IMG/VR virus record: IMGVR_UViG_2671180631_000012
Reading direction: 5' to 3' (one strand)
Source of the DNA: a virus
Lineage: Duplodnaviria; Heunggongvirae; Uroviricota; Caudoviricetes
DNA length: 45,635 nucleotides
This document shows positions 335 to 38,480 of the stretch, in pieces. Position 1 is the stretch's first letter, and each line of letters opens with the position of its first letter. Position numbers and translations under genes: made by a program. The notes under the pieces are model-generated. The model did no database searches, was not told the origin of the DNA, and worked only from the letters and a program-made list of their open reading frames with translations.

Positions 335-4994
<4,660 letters not shown>

Positions 4995-5702: not shown

Positions 5703-6472
5703 TTGTCGGTATACCTCTCTCGTTTGCTCAGTTGTTCAGGAATATGGTGCAGCAGCTCGCCGTCACCACAGTAAATGGCGGCATGATTCGGCACCGATGA
5801 ACCAAAACAGCACAGCAGCACATCGCCCGGCTGCGCCGTTGACAACGGCACCTGATACAGCCCTGTAGCCTCCAGATTATCCAGATAGAGATTCTGACCA
5901 TTACGCCACCAGTCGTCCTCACGATGAAAATCTGGCATCTCAATTCCCGCCAGATGGTAAGCGTCCCGGAACAGCGTGTAACAGTCCGTCACCCCGTGCT
6001 CAAAGCGCCGCCCGGTGAGATGCGGCACACAGCGGAACTTGTGAATCGCCCCGCGGCAGACCAGCCACCACGACAAATCACTCTGCACCTGCAGCCGCCG
6101 GTCGGCCTCACTCAGCCAGGGCAGACCACCGGGGTGGCTGTGGACCAGCGCCACAATCTCACCCTGCATCTCTGCCTGCAGCCAGTCNNNNNNNNNNNNN
6201 NNNNNNNNNNNNNNNNNNNNNNNNNNNNNNNNNNNNNNNNNNNNNNNNNNNNNNNNNNNNNNNNNNNNNNNNNNNNNNNNNNNNNNNNNNNNNNNNNNNN
6301 NNNNNNNNNNNNNNNNNNNNNNNNNNNNNNNNNNNNNNNNNNNCGGCTCACCGGAAATATTCACGCAGGGAAAATATCTTTCCCCCTCCGGTGTTCTCAC
6401 CACGAAGCCGCACGACTCCGCTGGCGCACATCGCCGGGCGTGCGCCAGAATCGCTGATTCTGTCTGTGTCAT
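5600..6472 (-). CDS. K: Tail assembly protein K (JAB/MPN-like HSHP...SEAD motif plus NlpC/P60-like C-terminus); contains a scaffold gap
   Basis: ORF starts MTQTESAILAHARRCAPAESCGFVV as recalled for lambda K; HSHPGGLPWLSEAD motif present; 3' end overlaps the start of I. Confidence 0.8.
   Translation of the reverse strand: MTQTESAILAHARRCAPAESCGFVVRTPEGERYFPCVNISGEPXXXXXXXXXXXXXXXXXXXXXXXXXXXXXXXXXXXXXXXXXXXXXXXXXXXXDWLQAEMQGEIVALVHSHPGGLPWLSEADRRLQVQSDLSWWLVCRGAIHKFRCVPHLTGRRFEHGVTDCYTLFRDAYHLAGIEMPDFHREDDWWRNGQNLYLDNLEATGLYQVPLSTAQPGDVLLCCFGSSVPNHAAIYCGDGELLHHIPEQLSKRERYTDKWQRRTHSLWRHRAWHASAFTGICSDLAAASTFV
6188..6343. other. Assembly gap (156 N) inside K
   Basis: N run; translated as X residues in the K ORF. 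Confidence 0.9.
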
Positions 6473-27567: not shown

Positions 27568-28097
27568 ACAGCGAATCAGATCAAATAAAACGCACATTTG
27601 TTAACATTTACACAAAGTCTGCGTGGGATATTCTGAAAGAATATCCATAATGTGGAGAGAATCTATTGAAGTGCATGGTGCCGGGTGCCTCCCGGTGAAC
27701 AAAATGTTCGTGATACCTGTCGGCGACAGAAAAGGTTAATGGTATCACCCCACCGCACAGGGGGATTCACCATGCAGGAGTTTTCTTAGCAAACTCACTG
27801 CGCGCCCGGCAACTCCCAACCACATAAAATGCGGAGTTTGTGGCATTTATGCATATAACTCGCAGGAATTATCTTAAAAAACTGATGTCGATCCGGATTA
27901 AAAAGAAGCAGGTCATCATCAGATGACTGGAAAAAAGGAAAACAAAAAATACTCATCATACAGTTTTGATTGCAGGGATGAGCCTGCTATGCACAATATG
28001 CAGAATATAAGCAAGATAAAAATATGCAGGCATATTATTTCGGATCTTGTTATTAACACAACCTTTTTAATAATCATTTGGCATACAATAAACCAGC

Positions 28098-30348: not shown

Positions 30349-30756
30349 AGTAGCCACATGATAAGTTGCTGGAATCATATTTCCCACTCAAGTCATTAAC
30401 ATTTGATAAGATATATCTAAAAGGACGCCTTTACATTATTTATGCGTATATAATTTATTTATATACACAGTAAAGGTATCCTGGGAAAATATTTATCGTT
30501 AAAAAATACATCATAAATAATTAAGCTGAAATTTCAGAACACAACTAATACACACAATAAGGTTCAGTAACAGTAATCTATGTGGACTACATCGAGATTT
30601 TTTGATTAAACTTTAATAACTTATTCCTAACACACAGAATGCATAAACTAAAAGTAAAACAAATAGTTATACGAAAAACAACCATATTTATTCTATCTTC
30701 TCCTCTAATCAACATATCAATTATGTGTTTCATAACAGCTTGACATAACCCTCCAA

Positions 30757-30779
30757 AAGATGCATTTTTAATGCATGTT
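30757..30779 (+). promoter_or_regulatory. NsrR-box-like inverted repeat overlapping the promoter of the YeaR-like gene
   Basis: AAGATGCATTT-T-TAATGCATGTT, an 11-1-11 inverted repeat close to the recalled NsrR consensus; TTGACA -35-like hexamer at 30740-30745. Confidence 0.45.
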
Positions 30780-30794
30780 TTGGAGGAGGTGGTT

Positions 30795-31133
30795 ATGACA
30801 CACAAGAGAATTCCTAAAGATTGGGTAATCAAACGCTCAACTCCGTTCTTCACAAAAGAGAACGTACCTTCAGCGTTATTAACACATCATAATACAGCAG
30901 CAGGTGTTTTTGGGCAGTTGTGCGTAATGGAAGGCACTGTAACATATTATGGTTTTACTGATGAGAATGCTACTGAACCGGAGATAAAAGTAGTCATTAA
31001 TGCTGGCGCTTTTGCAACAAGCCCACCACAATACTGGCACCGTGTTGAACTAAGCGATGATGCTCAGTTTAATATTAACTTTTGGGTCGCTCCAGACTTT
31101 TCGGGCGAAAAAGTCTATAGCACCAAAAAATAG
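30795..31133 (+). CDS. YeaR-like DUF1971 (cupin-like) protein
   Basis: ORF 30771-31133; preferred start ATG at 30795 preceded by GGAGGAGG; about 112 aa with RSTPFF...FNINFWVAP pattern recalled for the YeaR/TehB-N family; opposite strand to neighbours. Confidence 0.5.
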   Translation: MTHKRIPKDWVIKRSTPFFTKENVPSALLTHHNTAAGVFGQLCVMEGTVTYYGFTDENATEPEIKVVINAGAFATSPPQYWHRVELSDDAQFNINFWVAPDFSGEKVYSTKK

Positions 31134-31163
31134 ATGATCATATTAAAAATGCTTTAACAGTCA

Positions 31164-31199
31164 GACCCGGCAGGGCTATCCCCGACGGGTCTCATTTTT
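31164..31199 (+). terminator. Terminator-like hairpin after the YeaR-like gene
   Basis: Imperfect stem AGACCCG...CGGGTCT followed by CATTTTT, 30 nt after the stop. Confidence 0.45.
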
Positions 31200-31753
31200 G
31201 TAAATATATTGGTTCTACATTGACAGGAGACTTCAACCATAAGAAGTAATCTGAATACTTGAGCAATAAATTTACTTAAGATTAATGAGCGCACCTTGCC
31301 GGACAAAGATAAACCAAGGTAACACCTTTTTTCTAGCCAGTATGTAATCAATCAGAAAGCCGCTCCATAAGAACAACAGCAAGACAATAAATTGCCATTA
31401 CAGCCGCAATAGCCAGCGCACATTTGAGAACCAGCACGACAACCCCCTGTATTAGACGCACACCAGTCCTGATAAATATGAGGCTGTCTCGTCAGTGATT
31501 CAATACAACTATTGGGTATAGTTTCTGTGATTTTATTCTGTAGAAATGGAACACAACAACCAGTCACCACCAGCACTTCCTTAAATGCTCTAAGTCAGAA
31601 ACAAGCCAACATTTTAGTCCGCTTTGAGCGATCTGCAGACATTGCTAGCAGCCTTCTGTGTGAATTCTCAGGGAGCAGGTCGGCATAGCATCACGTTGAG
31701 GCTCTTACCCTACTTGTTCACACCAACCCTAACTCCACAGACTGATTCATAAA

Positions 31754-32755
31754 TTAGTAATCTGCGTGTTTCGCACTTTTCAGAAATGCTTTCATATTTT
31801 CATTAGGTCGCTCAATTTCGAAGTTACTTCCATATAACTCTTGTAATTTTGGCCATAACTTACTTAATAACCCTCTCCTGCGATAAAATGGATGTATCCA
31901 AACGGTAGATAGGTACGGAGAATTTGCATTTGAATTGTTTATTGTGACCAGCCCAACTAAACATTGTCGATAACCACTATTATCCATTGATTGTATTTCT
32001 TCGACGAATGGATACGCGATTACATCAGTCCAACCATGATCGGTTGTATCCCATTGCATTCCGTCATGACATTCCTTCGACTGATAGCGGCGTAAAGCTA
32101 CACACGCGAGCTTTTGCCAATCTGGAGAATTAATTGTGATCTCTTCATCGTATGACGCGCCTATTGGAGCGGGTATTGGTCTGATTAATCCAGCATGGCA
32201 TTCATCATAGAACTTCATGTTTCCCTCAGAAACGTTGTGTACGTTGGGTTGCTCCATGTGTGCGCCATTCAAAAATAGCTCTGATAGTAGTGTATCTACA
32301 CTGTAATCTTTATTGATTATTGTCGGCTTAGAGTTTTTCTTATTAAGGCCGCGAGTAACGATTTTTTGATCAATGTTAACAACATGGAATAATCCGTCGG
32401 GGAGGCTAGCGAACCACGATGGGGCATCGGACCAGAATAGCATGCCTTTTGTACTTCTTAAGAGTTTAATTAAGTTAATACAAGCTTCTTCACTAGTCTT
32501 GCCGTTGATGCGAAGTATGTTAGGACTAAAGTAATATTCATCCATATCAGGGAATGCAGCTTCGCAAAACTCCTGTACATAATTTAGCACCTGGATTCTA
32601 CAGAGATCATCATAGCTGGTAATAACTAAGGGGGTATCTTCATTACTATTATGATTATCAATAATGCAATCTATAGCGAGACTTACTGCTTTGCGTATCA
32701 CTTCAGTTGAATCTAACGACTCTAAAAATTTTGTCTTTCGTGTGCGAATATCCAT
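31754..32755 (-). CDS. Hypothetical protein with GNAT-like C-terminal motif (cargo gene B)
   Basis: 333 aa; AT-rich; C-terminal VWIHPFYRRRGLLSKLW resembles the GNAT acetyl-CoA-binding motif; start 15 nt after the gene A stop. Confidence 0.5.
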   Translation of the reverse strand: MDIRTRKTKFLESLDSTEVIRKAVSLAIDCIIDNHNSNEDTPLVITSYDDLCRIQVLNYVQEFCEAAFPDMDEYYFSPNILRINGKTSEEACINLIKLLRSTKGMLFWSDAPSWFASLPDGLFHVVNIDQKIVTRGLNKKNSKPTIINKDYSVDTLLSELFLNGAHMEQPNVHNVSEGNMKFYDECHAGLIRPIPAPIGASYDEEITINSPDWQKLACVALRRYQSKECHDGMQWDTTDHGWTDVIAYPFVEEIQSMDNSGYRQCLVGLVTINNSNANSPYLSTVWIHPFYRRRGLLSKLWPKLQELYGSNFEIERPNENMKAFLKSAKHADY

Positions 32756-32770
32756 GTATGACCTGCGCTA

Positions 32771-33793
32771 TTAAAATTCATGAATGAACGGTTTGTCATC
32801 TGGTTGCAAAATGGTGGTTTTATTCGTTGCTACATTTAAACTGTTGTAGAGCATAATTGCCAGGTTCGATGCATTTTCAATCAGCGTTTCAAGATCCTGG
32901 TCTGTAATCACTACGAGGTTCCCTTCTTTATCCTTTCCACCACGATGCACTAAGTGATTTCGATTGAGGGTTGCCAATTCAATAGCTTCTATCGGACAGT
33001 CTTTTTGTACTTTTATATCGAATGTAGCTTCATAGCGGTCGATTACCTTTTTAGTGCTATGCCAGCTTGCACTGATCAAGTGTTCCTTGATTGACCTGAT
33101 TAGCTCTCCCCTAATTTTCTCGATGGGTTCACCCTTGAAAGGCAACGCAGCAATATCTTTGCTTACTTTAAATTCAGTCTTACCTTTTTCTATACAATTG
33201 GCTATGTAGACATCATCTTTCTCTATAGAATTAATGAATAGCTCAACATAAAGCGTTTCCAAAGCTGTAATAACATTCGTGTAGAGCAAACTAAGCAAGT
33301 GGTTTTTTTGCTGTTGTTCAGTTTTATCTTTTGCAAGTTTTTTTATTTTATCGATATTATCAATGAATTTTAAATACGGATTACCGGAAGACGTTACAGC
33401 GTCGTAGATATCATCATCGTACCAATCATCTATATTATTTGAGTTTCCAGACCAGTCAAAACATTGTGTTTGTAATTCATCTACTAATTCCTCAATATAC
33501 TCAGATTTAACATATTGACCGAAGATGGATTGTAGTTCTTCGCTCGCATCATACGGCCCGCCATATATGTAAGCATAGCCACCTTCTCTACTTTCATACG
33601 GACAAGCATTTGCCGGATCTTCAAAGTTTTCAAAGAACCAGTTTTTCATTACTTCGAGTTGATCTTTTTTGCTTATGTATTTTAAAGATTTTAGTGGAAC
33701 TTTCTTTCCATTAACCTCGAAAACAATTTTCACGATGTAACGCTCCCTTGTATCAATTGCGCAACTATTATACCACAGCGAAATACAGGGCAT
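32771..33793 (-). CDS. Hypothetical protein with C-terminal HEPN-like Rx4H motif (cargo gene A)
   Basis: ORF 32771-33862; preferred start MPCISLWYN at 33793 with perfect SD GGAGG 7 nt upstream; AT-rich; motif LNRNHLVHRGG encoded at 32945-32962. Confidence 0.5.
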   Translation of the reverse strand: MPCISLWYNSCAIDTRERYIVKIVFEVNGKKVPLKSLKYISKKDQLEVMKNWFFENFEDPANACPYESREGGYAYIYGGPYDASEELQSIFGQYVKSEYIEELVDELQTQCFDWSGNSNNIDDWYDDDIYDAVTSSGNPYLKFIDNIDKIKKLAKDKTEQQQKNHLLSLLYTNVITALETLYVELFINSIEKDDVYIANCIEKGKTEFKVSKDIAALPFKGEPIEKIRGELIRSIKEHLISASWHSTKKVIDRYEATFDIKVQKDCPIEAIELATLNRNHLVHRGGKDKEGNLVVITDQDLETLIENASNLAIMLYNSLNVATNKTTILQPDDKPFIHEF

Positions 33794-33931
33794 AACCTGC
33801 CTCCTTAAACTAACATACCATGAGCCAGCAATGTCCGCTATTGGCACAAAGCGGACAACCACGCTAGCTCTCCCCTGTGCCAGAAAAATGTCAATTTACA
33901 TATGAACTAATGCTCTTTGATCTAGTAACGT

Positions 33932-34348
33932 CTATAAATACCGAAGATTTCCTTGATAAAATGCCAGTACACGTTTCATAACTTCACTCTTCCGGCACTC
34001 GCGACAGATTATGTTCTGACGCCTGTCATAGCGGCGTATTTCTCCGTCTGGTAATGACCAGATAAGGTCAGGATCAACCACAACCGTTTTTTTCACCTTT
34101 GCCCTGGATAGTTTTTTGCGGGCGTTTTTCCAATCCTTACGAGCCTGTTCAGACGGGAATAACCCATAGCCAGAGTTGTATACATCGCCACTGGCAACCA
34201 ACTCTCTGGCAAGAATGCTCATCAGATATCTTGTCGCACCTGTCTTGGCCTCCAGTTGCCTTAACGTCTCGCGCCCACTCTGGCGTACCAACTCAACAAC
34301 CTGCTCCTTAATTTTTTCACGCTCTTCCTGTGTAAAAACTTTTGCCAT
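33932..34348 (-). CDS. Hypothetical phage early protein
   Basis: ORF 33932-34363; preferred start MAKVFTQEEREK at 34348 with GGAGG SD. Confidence 0.45.
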   Translation of the reverse strand: MAKVFTQEEREKIKEQVVELVRQSGRETLRQLEAKTGATRYLMSILARELVASGDVYNSGYGLFPSEQARKDWKNARKKLSRAKVKKTVVVDPDLIWSLPDGEIRRYDRRQNIICRECRKSEVMKRVLAFYQGNLRYL

Positions 34349-34363
34349 AAGCGCCTCCGGCAA

Positions 34364-35125
34364 TCACTTTTCCGACACAATACGACTGGAGGAATCGACA
34401 ATCTGTCGGACAATATCCCGGTGCTTGTTCAGCTCCCGCAGCGCGGCGCAGACTCGCTCCCACTTCTGGACATGATTTTTCGCCCGACGCAGTTCGCGGT
34501 TTGCCATATGCAGCGATGGTAAAACTAGGTCATCCGCTTGCGTTTCAGTAAACGATGGCAGCGACTGCACAATGTCCGCCACAGTTTCTGTTTTAATATC
34601 TTCCTGTGTTGCCGCTTCCTGTACTGGTAACGCAACACCGGCTGGCTGAGGAAAGGCTTTACCATCAGTTTCCGCTACCGATGCAGCTTTCGGCTCTGCT
34701 GGTAAATTATCGCCCGGCATGCAGTAACGAAATTTACTGTTCTGGTTTACGCGAATCAGGCGTCCTTTGCTGATTGCCATTGCCAGCGTTGAAGCAACTT
34801 TGCGGGATGTTGTACCGAACAGCGTAGCCAGTTCATCCGCCGTTTGTGGTCCGCGTTGTTCAATCGTCGCGGTTAAATCGCACTCTGAGATTTTCACTAC
34901 AGTTGCCGTGGTGGTTTCTTCCGGCAGTTCTGCCTGCATTGGCTGTTCCTGCTGAACGTTGTTATCAGCCACACGCCAGGTGTACGCGCTTTTATCAACG
35001 AAACCAGCTTTTTTCAGTTCCCATAGTTCGTTCAGCACTTCTTCACGACTGATATCAAGTCGCGCAGCAAGTTCTATGGATGTGGCTTTTCCCATTGCTT
35101 TCAGTGCGTCAAAAACAGTCTCCAT
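34364..35125 (-). CDS. Hypothetical phage protein with N-terminal winged-helix-like region
   Basis: ORF 34364-35176; preferred start [13 protein letters not shown] at 35125 with GGAGG SD; [30 protein letters not shown] resembles a winged HTH. Confidence 0.45.
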
Positions 35126-35147: not shown

Positions 35148-35840
35148 TTACTTCTCAATTCCTGGCTGGACGACATTCGGACGCCAGCTCTCCCAGTTAA
35201 AATTCACCCATCGCCCGCCGTTCATGGNNNNNNNNNNNNNNNNNNNNNNNNNNNNNNNNNNNNNNNNNNNNNNNNNNNNNNNNNNNNNNNNNNNNNNNNN
35301 NNNNNNNNNNNNNNNNNNNNNNNNNNNNNNNNNNNNNNNNNNNNNNNNNNNNNNNNNNNNNNNNNNNNNNNNNNNNNNNNNNNNNNNNNNNNNNNNNNNN
35401 NNNNNNNNNNNNNNNNNNNNNNNNNNNNNNNNNNNNNNNNNNNNNNNNNNNNNNNNNNNNNNNNNNNNNNNNNNNNNGATAGCTGCCGCTAAGTGGTTCT
35501 TCCCGGTACCAGGTTTTCCGCTGAACGCAAAATTTGTACACCCGGTCATCAGTTCATCAGCGATGGATTTCGCCTGACTCAACGCGTATCGCTGCGCTTC
35601 GTTCTGCACCTGGTAATTCGAAAACGAGCATTTGCGGTGCAATGGCTGGATGCCAGAGCGATTCAGAATTTTTTCCACCCGCAACTGACGATTCTGACGG
35701 TTGATCTCCTCACAACGTTTCTGGCCTTCGGAAAGTTGCCACTCGCGCCACTCCGCTACCGTCTTGAATGGCGCGGTTACATGTGACGGGGCCAGTCTGC
35801 GGATACGTTCAAGAACGTCGCCTGTCGCAATATTTTTCAT
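35148..35840 (-). CDS. ydaV: DnaC/IstB-like replication ATPase (helicase loader); contains a scaffold gap
   Basis: Walker [15 protein letters not shown]; follows the YdaU-like gene; N run at 35228-35477 translated as X. Confidence 0.7.
35228..35477. other. Assembly gap (250 N) inside the DnaC-like gene
   Basis: N run. Confidence 0.9.
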
Positions 35841-36716: not shown

Positions 36717-37139
36717 TTAATGAACAATGACAGAATCGTCGGAAGACCCGCCGCCGCTGAAATGCGCTTTCCGGTAAACGGCTTGGACTGCATCATCATG
36801 CGCATCAATTGCCGTACTTAACGCTTCCTGCGCCGCCAGTAATGCACGGCGTTCCAGGGTATCGAAGATGCAGAGTCGGTGACGCAGCTCGCGCGGAAGG
36901 ATTGCCAGAATTGCTGGGATCAGCTTCTGAATTTTTTCTCTTTGCGTTTTCGTTTCACCTTTCAACCAACGGTGATAGATATTCTGCTGATTATTCCAGT
37001 CCTTGCCTGGTACCAGGGGCAATTCGCCGCCCCCCTGGCGCAGATATTCTTCAGTAATGGCATTGGCTACCCATGCCTGCCCTTTTTCGGCTGCCAGGGC
37101 TAACAACACTGACTCGATGTGCTCATGCTTGATTTTCAT
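36717..37139 (-). CDS. ydaT: YdaT-like protein
   Basis: 140-aa ORF immediately downstream of the Cro-like ydaS gene; length and position match recalled Rac ydaT. Confidence 0.65.
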   Translation of the reverse strand: MKIKHEHIESVLLALAAEKGQAWVANAITEEYLRQGGGELPLVPGKDWNNQQNIYHRWLKGETKTQREKIQKLIPAILAILPRELRHRLCIFDTLERRALLAAQEALSTAIDAHDDAVQAVYRKAHFSGGGSSDDSVIVH

Positions 37140-37390
37140 GAATCAACTCCCATCAGCTTTTTCGTAGTAGTTTTATTTCTGCCAATAGTTAAAATTACAT
37201 CAGCAGAAAATAATCCGTTTGATGCATGAGCGATTTTTTCAGCGTAATTTGTTTCGCCGGTATATTCTGTGCGAGGCAATTTTCCGTTATCCATCCATTT
37301 GTAGATTGCTCTTTGGCTGACACCACAAACGTCGGCCACAACAGAAACGCGAACAGTTTTGATTACATCTTCAAGTGTTTTCTGGTTCAT
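37136..37390 (-). CDS. ydaS: Cro-like HTH regulator (YdaS family)
   Basis: ORF 37136-37462; preferred start MNQKTLEDVIKTV at 37390 with SD GAGGG; HTH segment VCGVSQRAIYKWMDNGKLP; divergent from racR. Confidence 0.7.
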   Translation of the reverse strand: MNQKTLEDVIKTVRVSVVADVCGVSQRAIYKWMDNGKLPRTEYTGETNYAEKIAHASNGLFSADVILTIGRNKTTTKKLMGVDS

Positions 37391-37405
37391 ATCACCCTCA
37401 CAATG

Positions 37406-37477
37406 TGAACTTTGAGTACATGCTATAACAGAACTGACAGTACATTCAAGAGTGAATATCATTGAACTTATGGTTCA
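37406..37477. promoter_or_regulatory. Operator cluster in the racR-ydaS divergent region (three 15-bp TGAAC-N5-GTWCA-type sites)
   Basis: TGAACtttgaGTACA (37406-37420), aGAACtgacaGTACA (37430-37444), TGAACttatgGTTCA (37463-37477, overlapping the racR start). Confidence 0.55.
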
Positions 37478-37889
37478 TGAAGATAAAGCGCGTAAAGAGT
37501 TCGCCAGTAGGCTTGCGCTAGCCTGTGAAAACGCTGGTTATGAACAACATGGAAGGCAGGCAGAAATTGCCCGTCGAATGAAATTAACACCAAAAGCGGT
37601 TAGCAAATGGTTTAATGGCGAAACAATTCCTCGCCGAGAGAAATTAAGGGAATTAGCAACACTCATTGGAACAACACCAACCTATCTTTTGGGAGAGGAT
37701 ACAGAAGAAAGTGGACAGGTACGTTTCTATCAGGAGTTAAATCCAAGACAAAAAATCATCATTGACCTTCTGGACGAGCTCCCTGACAGTGAGACAGATG
37801 AACTTTTAAAAACTCTTGAGGAGAAAAAACAGAAGTACAATGCAATTTACGAAGAGCTAGCACGAAAGAAAAAACAAAAAGCCTCTTAA
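37452..37889 (+). CDS. racR: Prophage repressor (XRE-family HTH, CI analogue)
   Basis: 145-aa ORF with HTH (GRQAEIARRMKLTPKAVSKWFNGETIP), divergent from the cro-like gene; GTG or downstream ATG start. Confidence 0.7.
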   Translation: MNIIELMVHEDKARKEFASRLALACENAGYEQHGRQAEIARRMKLTPKAVSKWFNGETIPRREKLRELATLIGTTPTYLLGEDTEESGQVRFYQELNPRQKIIIDLLDELPDSETDELLKTLEEKKQKYNAIYEELARKKKQKAS

Positions 37890-37966
37890 ACCAGCATAAA
37901 TCCGGTAGCGTCCCCCTCCGGGTTTGTGCTTCACTTTATCCCATCTCATTTTTTTACACACAAAAT

Positions 37967-38004
37967 GTACTTATAGTACTTTACATCAATGAACACAAAG
38001 TACA
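37967..38004. promoter_or_regulatory. Second operator region downstream of racR (candidate leftward early promoter/operator)
   Basis: Perfect palindrome GTACTtatAGTAC (37967-37979) and a fourth TGAACacaaaGTACA site (37990-38004), overlapping a TTTACA -35-like hexamer. Confidence 0.5.
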
Positions 38005-38179
38005 TTATATACCTACCAACCCACCCCGCCCCACAGAACGCAGGGCAATACTTCGAGTTACCAGGCAGTGGTCAGGGGTTAAGTAGCCAGCCCGAGGCGT
38101 ATGAACATGACGGCAGGGTTCAGATTTTGCAGTGCAGCAGGTTTCAGTTCCGCCACCCGGCGTTAAGGGGAGAGATAAG

Positions 38180-38314
38180 ATGGTGCATTACGAAGTAGTT
38201 CAGTATTTGATGGATTGTTGCGGTATCACTTACAACCAGGCTGTGCAGGCTTTACGCAGCAACGACTGGGATCTCTGGCAGGCAGAAGTCGCTATACACA
38301 GCAACAAGATGTGA
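38180..38314 (+). CDS. ydaG: Small protein YdaG-like (44 aa)
   Basis: MVHYEVVQYLMDCCGITYNQAVQALRSNDWDLWQAEVAIHSNKM; sits between racR and sieB as in Rac. Confidence 0.55.
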   Translation: MVHYEVVQYLMDCCGITYNQAVQALRSNDWDLWQAEVAIHSNKM

Positions 38315-38324
38315 GATTCGCAAA

Positions 38325-38480
38325 ATGCAAAAAATCGACCTCGGCAACAACGAATCCCTGGTGTGCGGCGTGTTCCCCAACCAGGATGGAACGTTCACTG
38401 CCATGACGTATACCAAAAGCAAAACATTTAAAACCGAAACTGGTGCGCGCCGATGGTTGGAGAAGCACACAGTAAGCTAA
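38325..38480 (+). CDS. ydaF: Small protein YdaF-like (51 aa)
   Basis: Own translation MQKIDLGNNESLVCGVFPNQDGTFTAMTYTKSKTFKTETGARRWLEKHTVS; not in ORF track (under 60 aa). Confidence 0.55.
   Translation: MQKIDLGNNESLVCGVFPNQDGTFTAMTYTKSKTFKTETGARRWLEKHTVS

Follow-up and report, generated by a model that had tools for sequence, protein, structure and literature searches.

The 45,635-nucleotide stretch of viral DNA analysed here (Caudoviricetes; IMG/VR record IMGVR_UViG_2671180631_000012), in the following called the window, is a full-length Rac-type prophage, apparently complete from the integrase to the tail fibres. The subject of the analysis is its immunity region, where a repressor gene and a divergent cro-like gene are accompanied by five 15-bp palindromes, three in the divergent region and two downstream of the repressor gene, which very probably are the binding sites of the repressor and the Cro-like protein in the lysis-lysogeny switch of this prophage.

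Genes and probable operator sites of the immunity region

The two regulatory genes and the five sites, named after the right (OR) and left (OL) operators of lambdoid phages, are as follows.

37136-37390, minus strand: Cro-like gene, 84 amino acids, with a helix-turn-helix (HTH); GAGGG Shine-Dalgarno complement at 37393-37399
37470-37889, plus strand: repressor gene, 139 amino acids, Pfam HTH_3 at the N-terminus, HK022-CI-type HTH, RefSeq WP_000233320
37406-37420, no strand assigned: OR1-equivalent operator TGAACTTTGAGTACA, exact motif match, at -64 from the repressor ATG
37430-37444, no strand assigned: OR2-equivalent operator AGAACTGACAGTACA, one-mismatch match, at -40 from the repressor ATG
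37463-37477, no strand assigned: OR3-equivalent operator TGAACTTATGGTTCA, exact match on both strands, at -7 from the repressor ATG
37966-37980, no strand assigned: OL2-equivalent operator TGTACTTATAGTACT, one-mismatch match, abutting the -35 element of the predicted leftward promoter (PL)
37990-38004, no strand assigned: OL1-equivalent operator TGAACACAAAGTACA, exact match, within the PL spacer

OR1 sits between the -10 element of the predicted rightward promoter (PR) and the Shine-Dalgarno sequence and ATG of cro, while OR2 lies within the PR spacer and holds at its centre the -35-like CTGACA of the predicted promoter for repressor maintenance (PRM). OR3 is perfectly symmetric, has its centre on the repressor ATG at 37470 and overlaps the predicted PRM start point. 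This ATG is the start codon annotated by RefSeq, and the MV(H/Q)E N-terminus that it specifies (MVHE.../MVQE...) is conserved in homologues. The centres of successive OR sites are 24 and 33 bp apart, those of OL2 and OL1 24 bp.

Three patterns, in which W is A or T, were scanned over the full window. The exact pattern TGAACN5GTWCA occurs at three places (four strand-matches) against 0.19 expected, TGWACN5GTWCA with at most one mismatch gives 12 matches against 3.9 expected, five of them inside 599 bp, and the core GWAC-N5-GTWC is found in seven copies against 1.5 expected, with five of the seven in the operator cluster. Against a background set by the seven scattered one-mismatch matches, at least five matches in 599 bp have a Poisson probability of 5.4 × 10^-8. 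The coordinates and sequences that an initial annotation of this DNA had given for TGAACTTTGAGTACA, AGAACTGACAGTACA, TGAACTTATGGTTCA and TGAACACAAAGTACA, and for GTACTtatAGTAC at 37967-37979, proved correct throughout. The last of these had been regarded as a separate perfect palindrome; it is instead a fifth copy of the motif, TGTACTTATAGTACT at 37966-37980, which carries one mismatch and stands in register 24 bp upstream of the site at 37990. The search of the whole prophage returned no more exact copies outside the cluster.

Isolated core copies of the form GAAC-N5-GTTC are present at 962-974 and at 27697-27709, the latter within TGAACAAAATGTTCG (27696-27710), which is intergenic in the late region; their count equals the chance expectation of 1.5. 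With this frequency and with disfavoured bases at position 6, the two copies are probably not operators, and the five other one-mismatch matches were rejected as operators on the same grounds.

Probable operators of the HK022 family

The operator assignments of phage HK022 were taken from its GenBank annotation (X16093), from that of HK75 (NC_016160) and from a secondary citation. In both phages the annotation places oR1, oR2 and oR3 at -64, -40 and -7 relative to the ATG of cI and separates oL2 from oL1 by 24 bp, and the offsets in the window are equal to these. Site by site the sequences compare as follows.

oR1: HK022 TGAACTTATGGTTCA; window TGAACTTTGAGTACA
oR2: HK022 GGAACTGATAGTACA; window AGAACTGACAGTACA
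oR3: HK022 TGAACTTATGGTTCA; window identical, 15 of 15 bp
oL2: HK022 TGTACTATTGGTACT; window TGTACTTATAGTACT
oL1: HK022 TGAACTTTAAGTACA; window TGAACACAAAGTACA

The likeness to HK022 and HK75 thus extends over the 15-bp operator, the offsets from the ATG, the 24-bp OL pair, the placement of PR, PL and the inferred PRM, the DNA-binding domain of the repressor and Cro. In nucleotide sequence the window shares 70% identity with HK022 over 37220-37630 and 82% over 37949-38009. Between the Cro-like protein and HK022 Cro the identity is 62% (E 2e-34), and most related loci have a Cro of HK022 type together with the operators. When the N-terminal 77 residues of the repressor were compared with phage genomes by tblastn, the identities were 58% to the CI repressor of HK022, 57% to that of HK75 and 51% to that of 933W.

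The differences from HK022 include the remainder of the repressor: HK022 CI comprises 235 amino acids with an S24 self-cleavage/oligomerisation domain, whereas the window repressor of 139 amino acids ends in a DicA-like tail. In addition, the window has no far-right operator (OFR), shows a one-half-site remnant in place of oL3, possesses a weaker PR and has YdaT and Rac genes as neighbours where HK022 has CII and Nun. By sequence the sites belong to the HK022/933W operator family, with the S24 C-terminal domain of the repressor as the only defining feature that is missing.

Phage 933W is the second close relative. Its repressor shares 51% identity in the DNA-binding domain with conserved K42 and K46, and recognises a 15-bp symmetric site with G-W-A-C at positions 2-5; its oR1, oR2 and oR3 are located at -63, -39 and -7 from the cI ATG compared with -64, -40 and -7 in the window, and its putative pM is placed in the same way as PRM. 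On the other hand, the 933W half-sites are CGTAC-like, differing at position 1, and the repressor has an H-19B-type C-terminal domain and binds non-cooperatively (PMC3202840).

Predicted recognition of the half-sites by the repressor

For the 933W repressor the 15-bp site is rotationally symmetric, with positions 2-5 critical and position 1 unimportant; A or T is found at position 3, T or C is preferred at position 6, and modelling points to S41, K42 and K46 as residues in contact with the DNA, the mutants S41A and K46A having been tested (PMC3317979). The window sites display the same preferences. GWAC...GTWC is present in all five, so that G-W-A-C is invariant, position 1 is T or A, and nine of the ten half-sites have T or C at position 6. 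On the protein side K42 and K46 are conserved in the window repressor, and the recognition region TPKAVSKWFNGE, which reads VTPKAISKWFNGE in HK022 CI, is invariant in aligned relatives. The corresponding region of 933W, SSKGVSKWFNAE, differs, and its half-sites (CGTAC) differ correspondingly; as judged from these alignments, 933W and the window are a small example of protein-site co-variation.

Conservation across related loci

Repressor homologues were collected and aligned, and 35 loci were fetched by repressor homology. Of these, 19 have the OR triad at exactly -64, -40 and -7 from the ATG of the repressor gene, and they include members of Escherichia/Shigella, Kluyvera, Klebsiella, Enterobacter, Brenneria, Providencia, Photobacterium, Vibrio, Pseudomonas and Salinicola. 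If the window and the phage records are included, 21 sequences have an OL-type pair with 24-25-bp spacing at a distance of 0.5-2.6 kb downstream. In Pasteurellaceae the arrangement varies, with two OR sites separated by 57 bp, and the two most distant matches (Bacilli, Oscillospiraceae; 31-34% identity) have no such operator cluster.

The mean information content is 1.50 bits in the half-sites against 0.80 between the sites. It amounts to 0.8 in the OR1 spacer, 1.38 in the OR2 spacer and 1.42 in the OR3 spacer, the latter two being conserved because they contain the -35-like element (OR2) and the ATG (OR3). When the window, phage Tritos and a Shigella locus are compared, substitutions within the sites are confined to the N5 spacers and all ten half-sites are intact. 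The motif tracks the CI/Cro pair whatever genes are adjacent, be it CII in HK022 and 933W, YdaT in the window or a HigB/HigA-like insert in Salmonella.

The full OR triad, in a module of enterobacterial type, was also encountered on a 1-kb contig of Streptomyces sp. (L014) and in an alphaproteobacterial metagenome-assembled genome, Pseudooceanicola (L033); these copies most likely reflect contamination or mis-binning and not the true host range.

A cassette exchanged within a Rac-like prophage

In a blastn comparison of the window with the Rac prophage of Escherichia coli K-12, identity is 99.3-99.4% as far as 37145 and from 38014 onwards, and the intervening DNA gives no alignment. This delimits the following feature.

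37146-38013, no strand assigned: immunity cassette of 868 bp swapped relative to K-12 Rac, comprising cro, OR, the repressor gene and OL/PL

The left boundary follows directly after a recognition box for YdaT, and the right boundary lies 6 bases past the -10 element of predicted PL in the C-rich CCCACCCCGCCCCACAGAACGC. As read from this alignment, the immunity cassette is exchanged by replacement of the racR-ydaS cassette in an otherwise Rac-like prophage. Its location between ydaT and ydaG/ydaF was confirmed, and the gene order is as in K-12 Rac: beyond the cro-like gene follow ydaT, ydaU and ydaV, and downstream of the repressor gene a ydaG-like open reading frame (ORF), ydaF, sieB, kilR, racC, recET, xisR and intR. 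About 1038 of 5426 complete E. coli genomes (about 19%) carry at least 80% of a 1251-bp query spanning the cassette, and the phage records Tritos and vB_EcoS-666R9/673R7/613R10 contain the cassette too.

The initial annotation had proposed candidate operators of RacR and YdaS in a layout resembling OR1-3 and OL. The layout stands, being that of the annotated HK022 operators and recurring in 19 of the 35 loci, whereas the gene names do not. In BLASTP the repressor matches K-12 RacR at 12 of 33 positions, in the HTH stretch only (E 1e-4), and the Cro-like protein shows no significant similarity to K-12 YdaS (E 0.028), values which rule out orthology of the window regulators with RacR and YdaS. 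At the level of the sites, K-12 Rac contains no TGWAC-N5-GTWCA even with one mismatch and has a different palindrome of the type TTAGGC...GCCTAA at the equivalent positions; Qin holds scattered two-mismatch matches only, all of them outside the dicC-dicA intergenic region and the DNA immediately following dicA. The cognate proteins are, on homology, the HK022-CI-type/DicA-tailed repressor and the HK022-type Cro. As this pair is not orthologous to RacR/YdaS, purified K-12 RacR and YdaS would be the wrong proteins for binding tests.

In K-12 Rac itself (L001, 2100-2200 and 2740-2870), ATTAGGC-N-GCCTAA-like repeats occur three times in the racR-ydaS gap and at least twice downstream of racR, where they overlap a promoter-like TTGACA...TATAGT; the OR/OL logic is alike, the sequence is different.

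Just outside the cassette, in DNA shared with K-12 Rac, the YdaT box TTGATTttcatgAATCAA at 37129-37146 is perfect and overlaps the start codon of ydaT, which reads cat at 37137-37139 of the plus strand. It is identical to the YdaT recognition sequence TTGATT-N6-AATCAA of prophage CP-933P and is the one exact match in the window, compared with 0.4 expected at up to one mismatch.

Predicted promoters

A sigma-70 consensus scan of 37100-38400 returned two sites, both overlapping operators as in HK022 and 933W, and a third promoter was placed by homology.

37434-37462, plus strand: predicted PRM-like promoter, CTGACA, 17 bp, TATCAT, matching at 10 of 12 positions, the best sigma-70 match in the scan
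37980-38008, plus strand: predicted PL, TTTACA, 17 bp, CATTAT, from the scan, matching at 9 of 12 positions
37420-37449, minus strand: predicted PR with -35 TTGAAT (37449->37444), placed by homology with the annotated HK022 pR

The -35 element of PRM is inside OR2, and the promoter is placed as the annotated putative pM of 933W, with the -35-like and -10-like elements conserved across loci. Since the -10 element ends 7 nucleotides before the A of the ATG at 37470, the repressor mRNA is predicted from its sequence to be probably leaderless; lambda cI and CP-933P paaR2 are leaderless also (PMC8630535). PL is homologous to the annotated HK022 pL (TTTACA-17-CATCAT), is conserved in 21 loci and is predicted to drive the ydaG-like ORF, ydaF, kilR, racC, recET, xis and int. 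For PR the -10 element may be either TATAGC (37427->37422, 16-bp spacer) or TAGCAT (37425->37420, 18-bp spacer). Its CTTG...ATA pattern is conserved in the locus alignment, the promoter hexamers of Tritos are identical, and it is predicted to drive cro-ydaT-ydaU-ydaV. By scan, no terminator was found between the repressor gene and OL.

A repressor with a DicA-like C-terminal tail

Beyond approximately residue 85 the repressor continues in a short, helical tail that aligns with the tail of DicA (E 1e-7). The NCBIfam DicA model covers it nearly over its full length (E 2e-15, 56.8 bits, with the curated cutoff of 101 bits not reached), while the overall identity to DicA is 23%. Pfam yields no match to an S24 peptidase domain in the 139 amino acids. 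Most family members, HK022 and 933W CI included, are 220-250 amino acids long and many contain the S24 motif GDSM; close relatives with the short tail were found in E. coli, Shigella and Salmonella together with the same operators. Among solved structures there was just a marginal match, the N-terminal domain of P22 C2 (E 0.006).

A natural domain swap is conceivable, in which an HK022-type DNA-binding domain with the full HK022-type operator and promoter set has been joined to a DicA/Gifsy-type tail, and which, if functional, would have rewired the switch from RecA-stimulated self-cleavage to antirepressor control; this interpretation is tentative and stands at somewhat less than even odds. 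Induction does not cleave the short Gifsy-type repressors, which small antirepressors remove from the DNA instead, DicA and RacR belonging to the same group (PMC3121763), and DicA is derepressed by the antirepressor Rem (bioRxiv 2023.04.14.536235). As the DicA-like tail takes the place of the S24 self-cleavage domain, this analogy suggests antirepressor-type induction of the 139-amino-acid repressor, which is the weakest step of the account. The antirepressor could act in trans from another prophage (PMC3121763).

In Salmonella enterica prophages (L044, 9960-10070; L046, 9915-10025) short-tail repressor homologues with 62-65% identity occur with the same OR triad, and in the Salmonella loci an inserted HigB/HigA-like pair separates the repressor gene from OL. 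The ORF of 151 amino acids called in L044 begins at an in-frame ATG farther upstream and continues through OR2 (MTELIVH...), whereby this homologue resembles GfhR/GfhR* of Gifsy-3 with a promoter between two AUGs (PMC3121763). The extended ORF fits an assignment of the Salmonella homologue P0015 as Gifsy-3 GfhR, a candidate that was not retained as the neighbourhoods did not settle the Gifsy identity.

Proposed switch and alternative explanations

Cumulatively, we regard it as very probable, at roughly 0.88, that the five palindromes are the operators of an HK022-type lambdoid bistable immunity switch encoded on the 868-bp cassette that replaces racR-ydaS. In the proposed mechanism a dimer of the 139-amino-acid repressor would recognise each site through its HK022-CI-type helix-turn-helix, reading half-site positions 2-5 (G-W-A-C). 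Occupancy of OR1 and OR2, with centres 24 bp apart, would occlude PR and keep cro-ydaT-ydaU-ydaV silent, as occupancy of OL2 and OL1, likewise 24 bp apart, would occlude PL and silence the kilR-recET-xis-int operon. OR3, covering the start of the probably leaderless PRM transcript, would serve negative autoregulation and provide the site for shut-off of repressor synthesis by Cro. With OR and OL approximately 0.55 kb apart, a repressor-mediated loop may bridge them as with HK022 CI, and induction would occur more likely by an antirepressor than by RecA-stimulated cleavage. HK022 CI binds cooperatively to adjacent operators (Carlson & Little 1993, cited in PMC8053113) and loops OL to OR (PMC8053113); the conserved 24-bp spacing suggests pairwise repressor interaction, but is not proof of it.

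Several observations weigh against this switch. The order of occupancy, cooperativity and looping are extrapolated from HK022, while the window repressor is without the C-terminal oligomerisation domain of HK022 CI, and as the 933W repressor with its related DNA-binding and different C-terminal domain is non-cooperative (PMC3202840), cooperativity of the window repressor cannot be assumed. As OR2 overlaps the -35 element of PRM, repressor bound there may activate or repress this promoter. Predicted PR falls below the threshold of the consensus scan, its hexamers matching at 8 of 12 positions, and is weaker than HK022 pR. An equivalent of the HK022 far-right operator is absent at up to one mismatch in 37000-37400, and OL3 is at most degenerate, since in TCTCATTTTTTTACA at 37944-37958, which precedes OL2 by 22 bp, the right half-site (TTACA) alone resembles the motif. 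With respect to induction, there is no exact LexA box CTGT-N8-ACAG in the window, where three-mismatch matches to the 20-mer look random, and no antirepressor gene was found in it, small ORFs having not been searched systematically.

A third OL site is recognisable in several other loci at the HK022/HK75 oL3 position.

Four other explanations compete with the HK022-type switch. That the palindromes are chance or compositional features of a promoter region, with no specific protein partner, is suggested by the AT-richness of the region and by the seven one-mismatch matches elsewhere in the window, which are near chance expectation; the explanation is nevertheless effectively refuted and keeps virtually no probability, as five copies fall within 599 bp (P about 5 × 10^-8), offsets and half-sites have been preserved in several orders of gammaproteobacteria, in contrast to the DNA between them, which has diverged, and the HK022 record has matching annotated operators. 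Operators of RacR and YdaS in the K-12 sense would be expected from the exact racR-ydaS position of the cassette in a prophage 99% identical to K-12 Rac on both sides, and from the analogous layout of K-12 Rac, where palindromes recur both between the genes and after racR and where four RacR operators have been reported (PMC11879457). This possibility is already refuted at the sequence level and is extremely improbable, given that the repressor matches RacR over 33 residues only, the Cro-like protein has no significant YdaS match, K-12 Rac uses the TTAGGC/GCCTAA-type palindrome and not the TGWAC motif, and the cognate proteins are of HK022 type.

Binding of the sites by the CII analogue YdaT or a host factor instead of the repressor and Cro is very improbable as well. 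The ydaT gene does adjoin the cassette, and K-12 Rac YdaT binds within the racR-ydaS intergenic region and at its own box (PMC11879457); the recognition sequence of YdaT, however, is TTGATT-N6-AATCAA (PMC9986795, PMC11879457), which is present separately at 37129-37146, and the TGWAC motif goes with the CI/Cro genes both in HK022 and 933W, which have CII and no YdaT, and in the Salmonella loci. Finally, operators genuine in origin could belong to a switch that is now an inactive relic of a cryptic prophage, in which only repression at OR1/OR2 and OL matters and no lysis-lysogeny decision is taken. For this speak the cryptic state of K-12 Rac, where RacR mainly silences the toxic ydaS/ydaT (PMC5700373), the weakness of predicted PR and the fact that searches of the window for a LexA box and an antirepressor revealed no induction pathway. 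We consider it very unlikely in view of the apparently complete prophage, of the intact repressor and cro ORFs and of the same cassette in the phage genome records Tritos and vB_EcoS-666R9/673R7/613R10 with identical promoter hexamers and intact half-sites.

Related immunity systems

Besides HK022 and 933W, a divergent-promoter architecture with repeated operators is known experimentally for K-12 Rac (PMC11879457) and for CP-933P (PMC8630535). K-12 Rac shares with the window the chromosomal and prophage context, the flanks (ydaT; ydaG/ydaF) and divergent promoters with repeated operators, while its repressor, Cro analogue and operator sequence are unrelated, and its immunity specificity is another one. 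PaaR2/YdaS belongs to CP-933P of E. coli O157:H7, a cryptic Rac-like prophage in which YdaT is the CII analogue; this switch has a lambdoid arrangement of OR and OL, a leaderless repressor gene, and regulation of PR, PRM and PL by the repressor and the Cro analogue (PMC8630535); it differs by 18-bp operator repeats of the GTTTAGTAA type and by a toxin-antitoxin pair in the repressor operon. Qin DicA/DicC and the Gifsy prophages have short repressors of approximately 135-140 amino acids without a cleavage domain, with the tail of the window repressor aligning to that of DicA, but DicA as a whole, its DNA-binding domain included, is only 23% identical overall, and the Qin operators have another sequence.

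Implications

A search of the literature found no paper describing this particular cassette. The finding is sound but largely ordinary, as the operators belong to the well-studied HK022 family, with the domain swap of the repressor as the mildly novel part. It corrects an easy mis-annotation: Rac-like prophages have several immunity types, of which the HK022-type one is carried by approximately 19% of complete E. coli genomes, and conclusions drawn in K-12, such as the essentiality of RacR, the C-protein cross-talk involving RacR and the RacR operator sequences, should not be carried over to strains with the cassette. Predictions that follow are cross-immunity with HK022-type phages, a leaderless repressor transcript and antirepressor-type induction. 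Should the domain swap be true, the carriers (1038 of 5426 E. coli genomes) would be immune to HK022-type phages, with a repressor-mediated immunity not directly lifted by DNA damage and an antirepressor possibly supplied in trans by another prophage, and the 24-bp operator spacing would work with a completely different oligomerisation domain. With respect to applicability, the conserved operator model TGWACY-N3-RGTWCA at fixed offsets could serve for the annotation of this immunity family in genomes of gammaproteobacteria.

Additional observations on the prophage

The near-identical prophage of E. coli strain 1428 (L043) appears to differ from the window in its ORF layout around 30700-34400, from the Q-like region to the replication genes. 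The region in strain 1428 encodes a KilA-N protein, a Hok/Gef toxin, a DUF1971 protein and two tRNA genes, and ARAGORN finds neither of the tRNAs in the window. Masked runs of N are present in the window at 1761-1918, 3644-3950, 6188-6343 and 35228-35477, the last of which interrupts the ydaV-like ORF and appears as a block of X in its translation.

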